A DNA stretch of 4,142 nt, taken from IMG/VR virus record IMGVR_UViG_2711768040_000003. One strand, 5' to 3'. Below are positions 1 through 3,236 of this stretch, in pieces. The DNA is from a virus (lineage: Duplodnaviria > Heunggongvirae > Uroviricota > Caudoviricetes). The notes below the pieces were generated by a model. It had not been told where the DNA came from, did no database searches, and saw nothing but the letters and a program-made list of their open reading frames with translations. The stretch's first letter is position 1, and each line of letters opens with the position of its first letter. The translations under genes and the position numbers were made by a program.

Positions 1-292
1 CTGAGCTATGACTGCGCATTCGGGCCACCAGCAGAGGTGGCATTGCTTTTTCGATAGCTGGTAACAACGCCTGAATTTTTTTAACCGCATCAGGGGTGTC
101 TTTCTCCACCCAGCGGAAAATTTTCTGAGTATTGCGAGCCAGGGCTTCCGGATGGCTGTCGTCATACAGTTCCGGGAACGTCATTCCCAGCTCGAAATAC
201 GCTTTGGTAATTTTCGCAGCCGGTACTTTTTCGCCGTCCGGATGCGCCCAGGCATTCATCGCCATGCGGATGTGTTCATGCTTGATTTTCAT
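1..292 (-). CDS. ydaT: YdaT-like prophage protein (CII-position gene), N-terminal ~97 codons only; the C-terminus runs off the left edge
   Basis: Reverse-complement of 241-292 reads ATG AAA ATC AAG CAT GAA CAC = MKIKHEH..., which I recall as the YdaT N-terminus. No stop before position 1, so it is absent from the ORF track. It lies directly downstream of the YdaS-like gene on the same strand, as in Rac. Family assignment is from recall, not a search. Confidence 0.6.
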   Translation of the reverse strand, partial: MKIKHEHIRMAMNAWAHPDGEKVPAAKITKAYFELGMTFPELYDDSHPEALARNTQKIFRWVEKDTPDAVKKIQALLPAIEKAMPPLLVARMRSHSS

Positions 293-557
293 GAATCAAG
301 CTCCTAGAAAGTGGTTTTGTTAACGTTTTGGTATCTTCCAGCTCGGGCCAAATATTCATCCAATCAAAAGGCCTTAGTTGCTGACGTGTAACTTCACCAT
401 TACTGGCTCGCTCAATAAGGACACATAACGATGCCCCTAACACTTGACCTTTACTCAACGCCTTTCTTAGATAACCGATGCTGGTACCACACTCGCATGC
501 AAACATACGCTGTTCATCTGACGAAAGAGAATTGAGAAATATTCTTAATTCTTCCAT
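276..557 (-). CDS. ydaS: YdaS-like Cro/CI-type HTH regulator (Cro position of the switch)
   Basis: 93-aa ORF in the track. Motif ...GTSIGYLRKAL...IERASNGEVTRQQLRPFDWMNIWPEL matches my recollection of the YdaS/Cro-like family pattern. Strong SD: reverse-complement of 558-570 is CTAAGGAGTAGCT immediately before the ATG (minus strand, 557-555). Divergent from the repressor gene. Confidence 0.7.
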   Translation of the reverse strand: MEELRIFLNSLSSDEQRMFACECGTSIGYLRKALSKGQVLGASLCVLIERASNGEVTRQQLRPFDWMNIWPELEDTKTLTKPLSRSLIHENQA

Positions 558-1898: not shown

Positions 1899-2219
1899 AT
1901 GGAATTTAAAGATTTACCAATGCAATTCCAGGAAATGGCAGCGAATATAGTTCGTTCCCAACTGGCGACTCTTGACCTGAGTACCGTAGAAAAAGAAACC
2001 ATCGATACTATATCCGGTAACGTGCGTCGTGCCTTTATCGGTCTGTACGAAGAGAAGCAGCTCTCTGATAACCAGGATTTACATGAAAAATACCTCCTGG
2101 ATCTAATGGATATCATTGATAAGGGGTTTGGCTTGTTAATGAAAAAGAAAGGGATTCGAATAGAACTCCTTGAAAATTACTTTGCAACAAAAAGCATTAA
2201 TTCTTTTGATTCAAAATAA
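1899..2219 (+). CDS. Hypothetical acidic protein, 106 aa, no recognised family; first gene of the AT-rich inserted segment
   Basis: 106-aa ORF in the track with a good SD (GAGG at 1889-1892, 6 nt before the ATG). Co-directional with the operon, starting 23 nt after the ydfC stop. AT-rich relative to flanking DNA. I recognise no motif. Confidence 0.6.
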   Translation: MEFKDLPMQFQEMAANIVRSQLATLDLSTVEKETIDTISGNVRRAFIGLYEEKQLSDNQDLHEKYLLDLMDIIDKGFGLLMKKKGIRIELLENYFATKSINSFDSK

Positions 2220-2472
2220 GAGAATTAATTACAGACTTAACATGCTCTTTCTCATGATTGAAGCTCTCATGATTGAAAGTGCCGGGTTGAAGCGAGTCGA
2301 TATAATCAACAAGACTCTGTCGTACGACTTCATTTTTATCCATAACAGATGCAAGAAATGAAATTGCTAAAAGAGTTATATCACTACGCGCCGCAGCATG
2401 CTGCAATGCTTTATCAAAATTATTAATCTGGCGTATCAGGGAGTTAATGATTTCATCATTTTCAGTCGACAT
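2197..2472 (-). CDS. Hypothetical 91-aa protein, convergent with and overlapping the 3' end of the 106-aa ORF by 23 bp
   Basis: ATG-initiated portion of the 202-aa minus-strand track ORF: MSTENDEIINSLIRQINNFDKALQHAAARSDITLLAISFLASVMDKNEVVRQSLVDYIDSLQPGTFNHESFNHEKEHVKSVINSLILNQKN. Plausible helical composition and an AAGGG SD-like sequence upstream. The track's extension to 2805 starts at TTG and is arginine-rich across the GC-rich region, so I trimmed it. Confidence 0.4.
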   Translation of the reverse strand: MSTENDEIINSLIRQINNFDKALQHAAARSDITLLAISFLASVMDKNEVVRQSLVDYIDSLQPGTFNHESFNHEKEHVKSVINSLILNQKN

Positions 2473-2806
2473 TTCACCCTTCTGAGGGTTGGTGATTAAG
2501 GAGTTCTCCACGGGTGAGGTGGAGTGCGTGCGCCGGACACGGGTGAGCATCCGGCACTGACAGTTTACTGAAAGGATATTTCCCTGAAAAGTCAGACCAT
2601 AACGCGAAAGCGCACGGCGAGGTAGCTGGTTCATAGATAGCCTGTCGTTAAATTTTCGTCGACCGTGCACTTCCGGTTGTGGCAACCCGCGAAATGGCGC
2701 GGCGGTAAGTATGGCGGGGTTATTCCTTCCCCGTTGAGGACACCGGGTTGTCAGGTTGACCATACGCTTAAGTGACAACCCCGCTGCAACGCCATCTGTT
2801 ATCAAT

Positions 2807-2864
2807 TTTCTGGTGACTTTTGGCGGTATCAGTTTTACTCCGTGACTGCTCTGCCGCCCTTTTT
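2807..2864 (+). ncRNA. dicF: DicF small regulatory RNA (cell-division inhibitor sRNA), including its 3' stem-loop and U-tract
   Basis: tttctggtgacttttggcggtatcagttttactccgtgactgctctgccgccc followed by ttttt matches my recollection of E. coli DicF (UUUCUGGUGACGUUUGGCGGUAUCAGUUUUACUCCGUGACUGCUCUGCCGCCC) with about one mismatch. It sits between ydfC and dicB as in Qin. Confidence 0.85.
2822..2864 (+). terminator. Intrinsic-terminator-like 3' end of DicF (GC-rich stem GGCGG...CCGCC followed by TTTTT)
   Basis: GGCGG (2822-2826) and CCGCC (2854-2858) flank an internally structured loop, followed by the T-run 2860-2864. DicF 3' ends are known to arise partly by termination. Confidence 0.5.
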
Positions 2865-2868
2865 AAAG

Positions 2869-3030
2869 TGAATTTTGTGATGCGGTGAATGCGGCTGAGC
2901 GCACGCGGAACAGTTAAAAAGGCCAGTTGACTTCCGTATTGGTTCTTATGGGTGGGTTCTCTGTATCCGGCGTTAATTGTTAACTGGTTAACGTCACCTG
3001 GAGGCACCAGGCACCGCATCACAAAATTCA
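2869..3030 (+). repeat. Perfect 19-bp inverted repeat (TGAATTTTGTGATGCGGTG at 2869-2887; CACCGCATCACAAAATTCA at 3012-3030) enclosing 124 bp between DicF and dicB
   Basis: Exact reverse-complement arms read from the sequence. In RNA this gives a 19-bp duplex starting 5 nt after the DicF U-tract and ending 17 nt before the dicB ATG. Confidence 0.7.
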
Positions 3031-3047
3031 TTGTTGAGGACGCGATA

Positions 3048-3236
3048 ATGGAAACGTTATTACCAAACGTTAATACGTCTGAAGGTTGCTTTGAAATTGG
3101 TGTCAAAATCAGTAACCCTGTATTTACTGAAGATGCCATTAACAAAAGAAAACACGAACGGGAGTTATTAAATAAAGTATGCATTGTTTCAATGCTGGCC
3201 CGTTTACGTCTGATGCAAAAAGGATACTGGCAATGA
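3048..3236 (+). CDS. dicB: DicB cell-division inhibitor, 62 aa
   Basis: METLLPNVNTSEGCFEIGVKISNPVFTEDAINKRKHERELLNKVCIVSMLARLRLMQKGYWQ is near-identical to my recollection of K-12 DicB. In frame with track ORF 2952..3236. Confidence 0.9.
   Translation: METLLPNVNTSEGCFEIGVKISNPVFTEDAINKRKHERELLNKVCIVSMLARLRLMQKGYWQ

Follow-up and report, generated by a model that had tools for sequence, protein, structure and literature searches.

Positions 2473-2806 of the window (the whole stretch of 4,142 nucleotides that was analyzed) are the untranslated leader, on the + strand, of a Qin-type dicB early-left operon, that is, the 5' part of the DicF precursor. The 3' 200 nt of this segment hold an irregular rod (domain 0) and a pseudoknotted core module, and these covarying domains are the new part relative to the known leader. 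The core is an autonomous mobile module, found in other phages with unrelated flanks. The best explanation, to which a probability of about 0.4 was assigned, is an untranslated leader with a mobile covarying core that may set read-through of the adjacent terminator, by analogy with the HK022 put RNA.

Identity and genomic setting of the segment

Bases 2487-2806 (query 15-334) were 97.8% identical to the K-12 ydfC-dicF spacer, the comparison proposed with the original prediction, and collinear with it on the operon sense strand; in K-12-type genomes the segment lies between ydfC and dicF/dicB. This match bears out the claim that the segment is the 5' region of the DicF precursor, a correct reading that was already published. 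The dicBF operon papers that were consulted (Faubladier 1990; Balasubramanian 2016, PMC5069750) describe a "long untranslated region" of ~320 nt before DicF without defined structure or function, and treat this leader as spacer. The K-12 Qin locus has the same sequence, with its flanking genes also shared and DicF next on the 3' side. Unlike that locus, the window has two extra genes inserted after ydfC, ahead of the spacer, and K-12-type homologues aligned from 2487 on only. The features at the edges of the segment were as follows.

2473-2486, - strand: right edge of the two-gene insertion (1899-2486) absent from K-12, from the homologue alignment limits
within 2473-2486, - strand: ribosome-binding region AGAAGGGTGAA of the leftward 91-aa ORF (ATG at 2472), by direct reading
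2791-2807, + strand: A/U-rich single-stranded linker GCCAUCUGUUAUCAAUU, from the core to DicF
2808-2859, + strand: DicF sRNA with its intrinsic terminator hairpin (GGCGGUAUCAG...CUGCUCUGCCGCC, then U5), Rfam RF00039

RF00039, a 52-nt covariance model of the 5' seed and terminator hairpin, matched 2808-2859 only (75.8 bits, E = 4e-16), outside 2473-2806, and the segment was therefore rejected as DicF RNA itself and regarded as its precursor leader. No Rfam family matched the segment (Rfam 15, E <= 1 on the window), no tRNA-clan match among them, and ARAGORN detected no tRNA or tmRNA in the window. At eight related loci nothing was matched over the segment (Rfam 15, E <= 0.01), the matches elsewhere in those scans being DicF, STnc100, tRNAs, C4, isrK and sok only. 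The leader has another non-coding module, STnc100 (RF02076), immediately 3' of DicF (2857-3080; 36.3 bits in the window vs. a gathering threshold of 47); it accompanies the core in P1-type and kilR-type loci and does not overlap it.

The segment had been called GC-rich, which is so only relative to the AT-rich prophage flanks (54% GC vs. 45% for the window). The leader is rich in G and poor in C, and therefore a poor Rho substrate. At least one match to the segment was present in 80% of complete E. coli genomes, with up to eight in some. Homologues, 75-99% identical, came only from Escherichia, Shigella, Salmonella and Trabulsiella; no more distant ones were detected in genome contigs (14 matches), viral contigs or a BLAST search of phages and plasmids with three variants.

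Stem-loops of the 5' half

The segment is a chain of stem-loops, which begins with three hairpins.

2506-2524, + strand: hairpin A, CUCCAC-GGGUGAG-GUGGAG, holding repeat copy 1 (direct reading, string search)
2532-2555, + strand: hairpin B, GCCGGA-12 nt-UCCGGC, with repeat copy 2 in the loop
2557-2595, + strand: hairpin C, CUGAC...GUCAG around a small GGA-UAUU-UCC hairpin, predicted from the minimum-free-energy fold of 2473-2870

The 10-bp direct repeat reported earlier, CACGGGTGAG, was recovered by string search at both positions (2509-2518 and 2538-2547). Some 10-mer repeat arose in 4% of segment shuffles, which makes the repeat marginal; copy 2 was a 9/10 match in K-12 and had diverged in other homologues. 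Hairpin A, a perfect stem missing from the hairpins first listed, was kept in most Qin-type homologues and replaced in others, with no evidence of covariation. Hairpin B had been predicted and was found (2532-2537/2550-2555), its stem invariant and its loop variable (CACGGGUGAGCA, CACGGAUAAGAA; CACAGGCAAGC in Salmonella), with zero compensatory changes among homologues. Several homologues carry unrelated sequence in place of the hairpin C region, and mosaic breakpoints are frequent in the 5' half of the segment. Folding signals were modest (z = -2.1 for 2473-2870 on the + strand, z = -2.0 for the core alone). Two ideas formed by eye, an SD-like UAAGGAG at 2497-2503 and an anti-Shine-Dalgarno element in the UCCU-rich P3 loop, were dropped, as neither had a consistent partner across lineages.

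Domain 0 and the core module

Domain 0 and the core were described by the following elements.

2598-2681, + strand: domain 0, a long irregular rod, its apical hairpin variable and GUUAAAUUU conserved (RNAalifold, 20 pairs)
2612-2620 with 2659-2668, + strand: inner stem S0 of domain 0, GCACGGCGA with UCG-A-CCGUGC
2676-2790, + strand: core RNA module of ~115 nt, a four-way junction with a pseudoknot (single-sequence minimum-free-energy fold, covariation)
2676-2683/2783-2790, + strand: core helix P1
2687-2691/2698-2702, + strand: core helix P2
2703-2706/2742-2745, + strand: core helix P3a
2715-2719/2729-2733, + strand: core helix P3b, with a variable loop rich in UCCU
2746-2753/2773-2780, + strand: core helix P4, with a nearly invariant 19-nt loop
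2709-2714 with 2760-2765, + strand: core pseudoknot, GUAUGG with CCAUAC

Exactly this junction was returned by the single-sequence minimum-free-energy fold of the core. Two hairpins of the original prediction are helices of it: the CCGCG/CGCGG hairpin was located at 2687-2691/2698-2702 (helix P2), and the GGGG-ttattcctt-CCCC hairpin exists as helix P3b, at 2716-2732 and not at the predicted 2723-2739 (7 nt off).

The core is a pseudoknotted four-helix domain kept by compensatory evolution. In a MAFFT alignment of 48 sequences (A2), 96% of cells were paired and 7 pairs had changed on both sides, a result matched by 0 of 500 shuffles. An alignment of 97 distinct sequences fitted to the model (A5) had 97.2% of cells paired, vs. 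32-57% for slid partners, and double-sided changes at 13 pairs (54 cells); 0 of 500 shuffles reached these values on all five measures. This covariation rests on few lineages, because the taxonomic range is narrow and the sequences are 75-99% identical. Helix P1 was wholly resequenced in one lineage (L149, GUGGUUAU/AUAACCAC), and the pseudoknot covaries, being GCAUGG/CCAUGC in sequences of the phage P1 type. P3b is backed by compensatory changes and stays helical though its sequence differs between lineages; the nearly invariant P2 is consistent with this structure. On the minus strand the U.G and G.U pairs of helix P1 would become mismatches, so the core structure is strand-specific. The core loops are conserved more strongly than DicF.

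The domain 0 rod is likewise maintained by compensatory evolution. Its pairs were kept in 98.2% of cells (alignment A6) vs. 28-43% for slid partners, and all three doubly changed pairs fell within S0, which stays helical though its sequence differs between lineages (CACGG/CCGUG in E. coli, CACUA/UAGUG in Salmonella, CAUUG/CAGUG in L215). At the base of the rod no compensatory change was seen in A6. This base (CAUAAC 2598-2603 with GUUGUG 2676-2681) competes with core helix P1; in the minimum-free-energy fold in window context the 5' strand of P1 pairs with the upstream CAUAAC, and the closing helix may therefore not always form.

Folding and covariance analysis over homologues, the check that had been proposed, thus returned conserved covarying structure at 2676-2790 and 2598-2681, stronger than expected when it was suggested that the segment could hold an additional structured RNA element; the opposite outcome, no conserved structure or covariation, was not observed. 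Literature searches on dicF-like regions, dicF antitermination and the P1 ban operon returned nothing relevant to the core fold, and an earlier description is possible in Faubladier & Bouche 1994, Lobocka 2004, King 2011, Murashko 2017 or Melson 2019. Even if its function differs from that proposed below, the core is defined well enough to be a candidate new RNA family.

The core in other phages

In phage P1 the core lies in the Pban leader, ~35 nt downstream of the C1-controlled Pban promoter and directly after P1ban/P2ban and the C1 operators. The P1 'dicF-like region' (misc_feature 68791-68892, NC_005856) marks a copy of the same core module (model R1, 87 bits): it shares P4, the pseudoknot, P2 and P3 with compensatory differences, followed by a terminator. 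The existing annotation is a similarity note only, which begins mid-module and spans the terminator. Phage P1 has neither DicF seed nor DicF hairpin, and its closing helix P1 differs. In lambdoid phages of the cdtI/Stx2c type that carry no annotated N, the core is in the pL leader, ~285 nt past a pL-like promoter. The cdtI phage has an ORF-free leader of ~590 nt in which the core comes after TTGACA-16-CATAAT, downstream of cI, and the first ORF after this leader had PHROG 204 (function unassigned) as its sole match. A Rac-like element carries the core upstream of kilR, and in the isolated phage HannyBb the exonuclease, xis and int genes lie beyond a DicF-type terminator. Neither cdtI nor HannyBb has an annotated N gene. 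There was one core copy per phage, always co-oriented with early transcription.

The terminator downstream of the core

DicF is among the oldest known bacterial sRNAs, with a role in cell division, metabolism and EHEC virulence. Its 5' end is formed by RNase E and its 3' end by the terminator or RNase III (PMC5069750). The start of the Rfam match at 2808, together with this literature, suggests that the RNase E cut making the DicF 5' end would fall at the 3' edge of the linker. The DicF terminator is leaky without any invoked factor, as DicF occurs both as a 53-nt terminated form and as products of full-length transcripts (PMC5069750).

Of about 75 distinct contexts, all except one had an intrinsic terminator 7-58 nt after the core: a hairpin and U tract stood downstream of it in 45/45 contexts of the first set and 30/31 of the second, the exception (L254) having no convincing terminator. 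At least seven unrelated terminator hairpin sequences occupied this position (-6.7 to -27 kcal/mol); the terminator sequence is thus free to vary, and DicF is one version of it. In phage P1 the terminator (GCCCAUCUUCGGGUGGGC-U6) lies between Pban and the tRNA and ban genes, so their expression requires read-through. No convincing further strong terminator was found downstream in the P1 or cdtI operons, and processivity is therefore not demanded.

Proposed function and comparison with antitermination systems

Our best guess, drawn from position and analogy, is that the core controls read-through of the adjacent terminator. It would fold co-transcriptionally just before RNA polymerase arrives at the terminator, and once folded would set how much transcription passes, most likely by acting directly on the elongation complex as put RNA does in HK022. 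The ratio so set would be that between a short terminated RNA (DicF or DicF-like) and the full-length early-left mRNA, which carries dicB/kilR, exonuclease, xis and int or, in P1, the tRNAs and ban. At Qin-type loci a further effect of the stable fold may be to define where RNase E enters to mature DicF, namely at the single-stranded A/U-rich linker. Control of read-through at the DicF terminator would make the core a switch between the sRNA and dicB/kilR, exonuclease, xis and int. It would further account for the way in which lambdoid phages without an annotated N, and likewise the P1 ban operon, get beyond a strong promoter-proximal terminator.

To our knowledge, RNA-mediated antitermination has so far been essentially an HK022 curiosity; if the proposal is right, E. 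coli prophages could be tested for it as a widespread strategy. The HK022 put RNAs (putL, putR) are cis-acting, protein-independent processive antiterminators of ~70 nt, with two stem-loops and a triplex, present in both pL and pR operons, and their read-through is blocked by mutations in the RNA polymerase beta' zinc-binding domain (PMC9378689). The core resembles them in genomic setting, as a structured leader RNA that stands before terminators in an early operon, in a lambdoid phage that has no N. Its location is put-type in the Qin dicB operon, at cdtI pL and at P1 Pban, the next terminator being 7-58 nt away. It differs in size and architecture (~115 nt, four helices and a pseudoknot) and occurs once per phage, in the left operon only. 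Model R1 gave nothing at E <= 10 against the HK022 immunity region and the put regions, which gene order would place in the pL-nun and cro-cII intervals. Homology of the core to put was rejected, there being no detectable likeness of sequence or architecture. A shared 9-mer (GCGCGGCGG) and a GGGUU..CAGG.UGA likeness to HK022, both noticed by eye, failed: the R1 search was empty and the local hairpin was not conserved in P1-type copies.

A wider claim, possible but doubtful, is that the core fold founds a second class of protein-independent antiterminator RNAs, structurally unrelated to the first, that modify the elongation complex. Phage P1 (for ban) and the abundant N-less lambdoid prophages of E. 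coli (Qin, Rac-like, cdtI and Stx2c types) would use it to pass a DicF-type terminator where their early-left operons begin, deciding between a DicF-type sRNA and cell-division inhibitors, recombination genes and int/xis.

Lambda nutL with N, and rrn-type boxA, occupy the same position, from the early-left promoter to the first terminator. A lambda-type nut site was rejected: boxA-like matches were at chance level, and N is annotated in neither cdtI nor HannyBb. Lambda 6S RNA is a promoter-proximal terminated phage transcript. So is StxS, an sRNA from pR'-tR' (PMC7547250). In both, as proposed for the core, a promoter-near terminator yields a short RNA and must be read through for operon expression; they differ in belonging to late operons under the Q protein, and are not known to have a conserved pseudoknotted domain.

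Alternative explanations

An unlikely but serious competitor leaves polymerase unaffected: the core would be a processing or stability platform, which shields the upstream mRNA fragment at its 3' end and offers the linker to RNase E, thereby setting where DicF-type sRNAs begin, or would form with the terminator a stand-alone phage sRNA of ~150-190 nt, transcribed from the early promoter and working either in trans or as a decoy for a protein. The RNase E-dependent 5' end of DicF, 17 nt after helix P1, is consistent with a platform, and the invariant core loops could be protein- or RNA-binding sites. The order in phage P1 (promoter, ~35 nt, core, terminator) resembles an ordinary sRNA gene of ~170-190 nt, and phage leader transcripts that terminate early can serve as functional sRNAs, StxS being an example (PMC7547250). 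Against both forms, the core always has an early promoter on one side and, on the other, protein or tRNA genes whose transcription must pass through it, and no target or partner can be named. At P1-type and L144-type loci the terminator is a plain UUCG-type hairpin that offers no seed-like single strand, which leaves no DicF-like sRNA to be matured there.

It is improbable that the core is a riboswitch-like or factor-responsive attenuator sensing a metabolite, ion, tRNA or host protein and thereby turning the adjacent terminator on or off. A compact pseudoknotted junction with nearly invariant unpaired nucleotides, directly before an intrinsic terminator in an untranslated leader, has the look of a conserved sensor-type domain, complete with covariation, and in Qin-type leaders the 5' strand of helix P1 has a competing partner. 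This upstream pairing is absent from cdtI- and P1-type leaders and has no compensatory change. Mutually exclusive terminator and antiterminator pairing was not found, complementarity of the terminator 5' arm to the element or linker being no better than for shuffled arms (7 representative types), and the core-terminator linker varies from 7 to 58 nt. A distribution restricted to Escherichia and close relatives, and no Rfam riboswitch match, also argue against sensing.

Very unlikely, too, is a segment without a function of its own, that is, a spacer or precursor conserved through recent horizontal exchange (a mosaic recombination linker), its hairpins incidental. The high identity within four genera, the mosaic breakpoints and z-scores of only about -2 would suit it, but it is opposed by the 13 pairs doubly changed with pairing kept (resequenced helix P1 and compensated pseudoknot included), by the poor pairing of slid controls, by P3b and S0 staying helical across lineages, and by the strand-specific G.U pairs and the loops conserved beyond DicF.

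Leftward promoter and minus-strand frame

The view of this segment as the likely promoter region of the leftward 91-aa ORF found no support: a scan of 2473-2806 gave no minus-strand promoter-like site at 9/12 or better, and the best candidate by eye (8/12, TTTTCA-17-TAAACT) is also in K-12, which is without the 91-aa ORF gene. The arginine-rich, TTG-initiated minus-strand frame that had been described is present in the window (2197-2805, 202 aa, about 15 Arg in the first 111 residues by our count), and its interpretation as non-coding agreed with the homologues. The frame was open in only 29 of 103 distinct homologues (median 2 stops), and deletions of 1 nt (30 cases), 5 nt (10), 7 nt (6) and 2 nt (4) were common; coding on either strand was rejected. 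A minus-strand protein gene is thus extremely improbable, even though the frame is open in the window and some RefSeq genomes and phage records annotate it: no PHROG matched it, its path would cross DicF in antisense, and a TTG start with an Arg-rich translation is the expectation for GC-rich non-coding sequence. In strain JP538 the NCBI pipeline has called a 214-aa 'hypothetical protein' that spans spacer and DicF, its counterpart in the window being the 202-aa frame, and recognition of the core module would correct such spurious annotations in many genomes.

Layout of the region

The window belongs to a Qin-type lambdoid prophage and represents its immunity and early-left region. Its features, in order, are as follows.

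276-557, minus strand: Cro/DicC-like gene
658-1077: DicA-like repressor gene
ending at 1876: ydfA, ydfB and ydfC
1899-2219, plus strand: small ORF, 106 aa (PHROG 6937, function unassigned)
2197-2472, minus strand: small ORF, 91 aa (no PHROG or Pfam match)
2473-2806: segment in question
2808-2859: DicF (Rfam, 75.8 bits)
2857-3080: STnc100-like stretch (RF02076; sub-threshold, 36.3 vs 47 bits)
3048-3236: dicB
after dicB: ydfD-like gene, then the start of an exonuclease gene

The 106-aa and 91-aa ORFs are convergent with overlapping 3' ends, and lie between ydfC and the K-12-type spacer. They form a two-gene insertion (1899-2486) that is absent from K-12, is present in a minority of homologues, and takes in the first bases of the segment (2473-2486). 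A promoter for the leftward 91-aa ORF had been proposed within the segment; this was unsupported, as a scan of the minus strand of 2473-2806 returned no promoter-like site, and the best candidate (an 8/12 match, by eye) is also found in K-12, which lacks the ORF. Repeated palindrome-like motifs at 1115-1165, between the DicA-like gene and ydfA (TTACCCATGGGTAT ... ATACCTATGGGTAT), probably act as operators and promoter for the dicB operon.

The remainder (2487-2806) was 97.8% identical to the ydfC-dicF spacer of K-12-type genomes, which starts 20 nt past the ydfC stop codon and extends to dicF. Among complete E. coli genomes (5,426 in total), 4,326 matched the segment at least once, some of them up to 8 times. 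The DicF 5' end is made by RNase E, and the 3' end by a Rho-independent terminator (53 nt) or RNase III (72 nt) (PMC5069750, PMC9438474). Given this biogenesis and the spacer identity, the original prediction of a DicF precursor 5' region was correct, and already known.

Conserved structure in the 3' 200 nt

The 10-bp direct repeat and three hairpins noticed initially were all found in the sequence, the third at 2716-2732, which is seven bases to the left of its stated position. G+C content was 54%, vs 45% in the window. The repeat was only marginally unusual (some 10-mer repeat occurred in 4% of shuffles) and unconserved (9/10 in K-12, further diverged in other homologues). Folding energy predicted for the plus strand was approximately 2 standard deviations better than shuffles. 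Thermodynamics was thus insufficient to call the segment highly structured, and it was the comparison of homologues that established structure. The suspected additional RNA element proved to comprise a core fold (2676-2790) and an adjoining domain 0 (2598-2681), both with pairs changed on both sides across homologues.

The core is a four-way junction, and the single-sequence minimum-free-energy fold gave exactly the same junction. Its helices are:

2676-2683/2783-2790: P1, closing helix
2687-2691/2698-2702: P2
2703-2706/2742-2745: P3a
2715-2719/2729-2733: P3b
2746-2753/2773-2780: P4

A pseudoknot is proposed between GUAUGG (2709-2714, 5' side of the P3 internal loop) and CCAUAC (2760-2765, P4 loop). 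When 48 distinct sequences were aligned with MAFFT, blind to structure, 96% of core cells paired, vs 29-53% with slid partners, with double changes at 7 pairs; shuffles matched the core in 0/500 cases on four of five measures and in 2/500 on the fifth. RNAalifold independently recovered P2, P3a, P3b and P4. For 97 distinct sequences aligned by fitting to the model, an alignment biased towards that model, 97.2% of cells paired (32-57% slid), with both-side changes at 13 pairs (54 cells), matched by 0/500 shuffles on every one of the five measures. The lineages that supply this covariation are few and all belong to one bacterial family.

In phage P1-type copies the pseudoknot is GCAUGG/CCAUGC and P4 contains GCCA/UGGC, and P7-type copies carry CGGC/GCCG in P3a. 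P3b occurs as CGGGG/CCCCG, CUGGG/CCCAG, CCCGGG/CCCGGG, GGGU/ACCC and CUGGGG/CUCCAG; the loops of these versions are unrelated, yet UCCU or CUCC is always present. In a Shigella dysenteriae plasmid copy the closing helix is wholly different (GUGGUUAU/AUAACCAC) and P2 is absent, with pseudoknot strands and P4 loop unchanged. The most conserved parts, exceeding DicF in conservation, are the unpaired AAGUAUGG and CAGGUUGACCAUACGCYURAG. In most sequences helix P1 includes U.G and G.U pairs; on the opposite strand these would be A.C mismatches, and the fold therefore belongs to the plus-strand RNA. In Qin-type leaders the 5' strand of helix P1 can alternatively pair with CAUAAC/CACAAC (2598-2603), lengthening the rod of domain 0; this pairing, favoured over helix P1 when the whole leader is folded at minimum free energy, had no compensatory support and was missing in cdtI-type and phage P1-type leaders.

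Domain 0 is a long irregular rod, with an inner stem S0 (2612-2620 with 2659-2668) that contains a conserved bulged A. Lineages differ in both strands of S0 (CACGG/CCGUG, CACUA/UAGUG, CAUUG/CAGUG), and 98.2% of cells in the domain 0 alignment paired, vs 28-43% with slid partners, with double changes at three pairs. At least 2587-2806 was kept upstream of DicF in all but one of 102 distinct sequences from DicF-bearing viral contigs, the exception having an internal deletion. At locus L009 (1626-1757), an 85-nt deletion with its ends in two AACGCGAAA repeats (one at window 2601-2609, the other the similar CCGCGAAA at P2) has removed domain 0 and the P1 5' strand, and the remaining core is retained.

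The 5' half (2487-2597) holds three hairpins:

2506-2524: hairpin A
2532-2555: hairpin B, stem invariant and loop variable, Salmonella copy included
2557-2595: hairpin C

These sit among frequent mosaic breakpoints, homologue alignments beginning at query position 15, 37, 55, 66, 107 or 115 (position 15 being window 2487). No compensatory change was found in them among the homologues compared, and so no claim is made for hairpins A-C.

The core as a mobile module

The core is a mobile module: distant BLAST matches recovered it alone (query 204-322) in unrelated settings. In phage P1 and P1-like plasmids it begins approximately 35 nt past the point where the C1-repressed P1ban/P2ban transcripts are expected to begin, annotated in phage P1 merely as a "dicF-like region", and is followed there by a terminator (GCCCAUCUUCGGGUGGGC-U6), three tRNA genes, tciABC and ban. 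A second setting is shared by phage cdtI, a set of Stx2c phages, and phages Ayreon and 2H10. In cdtI the order is cI, a terminator, TTGACA-16-CATAAT (11/12), a 285-nt ORF-free stretch, the core, a DicF-like terminator (GGCGGUACCAG...CUGGUACCGC-U5) 12 nt past the core, and a first ORF 150 nt further on. The covariance model of the core (R1) found exactly one copy across the entire genome of cdtI; the pR operon had none. The GC-rich 285 nt of this cdtI-type pL leader (L124, 2218-2500), unrelated in sequence to window 2487-2675, may be a further structured domain.

A Rac-like element carries domain 0, core, DicF-like terminator and an STnc100-like stretch directly ahead of kilR and recE, and Salmonella and Trabulsiella prophages also carry the core. 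STnc100-like modules recur 3' of the core in phage P1-type loci, just upstream of tciA (L143, 2786-2901, 50.3 bits); further stretches lie at L123 (3842-3961) and, by eye, ahead of kilR at L146 (approximately 1400-1560), and that of the window sits between DicF and dicB. This shared recurrence indicates that the two modules travel together, ahead of cell-division inhibitor genes.

A pattern scan of one genome per species found the core only in Escherichia, Shigella, Trabulsiella and three MAGs. The MAG copies (L136, L137, L139; labelled Bacillota, Veillonella parvula and Collinsella) are near-identical to E. coli or P1-type sequences, and a BLAST match in 'Actinobacillus phage vB_Apl-pPE4' (H90) has 86% identity; binning contamination or doubtful host assignment is the likely explanation for these copies.

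A terminator as constant partner

In the first locus set (45 distinct downstream contexts), a hairpin with U tract starts 7-58 nt after helix P1. At least 7 unrelated hairpin sequences are involved (DicF, two DicF variants, cdtI, Trabulsiella, Salmonella and phage P1 types), and among 31 further distinct contexts a convincing terminator was absent in one only. As the hairpins vary and a terminator is near-constant, the conserved neighbour of the core is "an intrinsic terminator" and not DicF; DicF is a terminator version that gained trans-acting seeds. In the one exception (L254, 6371-6501, minus strand), a gene with a good ribosome-binding site begins approximately 70 nt downstream, and pairing is lost at the first position of the pseudoknot and the last of P3a.

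In P1-like phage-plasmids (rep_cluster_1704) the core is accompanied by another, distinct structured RNA (L144, 1185-1301; also L147, L148 and L149), without a match in Rfam. It has the same closing-stem sequence (GUUGCGG...CCGCUGCAAC) and its own intrinsic terminator (AAGCCGACU...AGUCGGCUUUU; L144, approximately 1425-1485), and lies approximately 300 nt upstream of the main core, so that a single leader contains two "fold plus terminator" modules in tandem.

Proposed function and alternatives

The position of the core is constant: an untranslated leader, with a repressor-controlled early promoter 5', genes needed after induction 3', and a strong terminator immediately following. HannyBb has its exonuclease, xis and int genes on the far side of the terminator, and no N gene is annotated in the phages examined (cdtI, HannyBb). 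The reading favoured, tentatively (probability approximately 0.4), gives the core control over read-through of the adjoining terminator. Direct action on the elongation complex, as for the HK022 antiterminator put RNA, was graded the most likely route, and the core would then determine how much short terminated RNA is made relative to operon mRNA. The core is unlike put RNA in both sequence and architecture. The leader is G-rich and C-poor, and hence a poor Rho substrate.

No Rfam family matched the core, and identities as a tRNA, tmRNA or nut site were rejected. A classical terminator/antiterminator switch was also rejected, the terminator arms being no more complementary to the core than shuffled arms. 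The core fold with its pseudoknot, its occurrence in the phage P1 Pban leader and in pL leaders of lambdoid phages without N, and its pairing with a terminator were all absent from Rfam 15 and the accessible literature; papers outside that set may mention the extended homology.

The main rival to control of read-through, somewhat unlikely, is that the core is a platform for stability and processing, or an sRNA body; the RNase E cut 17 nt past helix P1 in the Qin-type locus is in its favour. An attenuator responsive to a ligand or factor is improbable, and a functionless spacer slightly more so.

Least credible by far is a coding region. The TTG-initiated, arginine-rich minus-strand frame does exist, but the non-coding reading of it held: it is open in only 29 of 103 distinct homologues, deletions of 1, 2, 5 and 7 nt are common, and its translation had no PHROG family match. 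The other five frames are open in 0/103. A minus-strand "hypothetical protein" is annotated across the spacer, and even across DicF, in some RefSeq and phage records, including a call of approximately 214 aa over the spacer and through DicF in strain JP538 (L002, 2225-2869) and similar calls in several phage records. With the frame interrupted in most homologues, such annotations are probably spurious.
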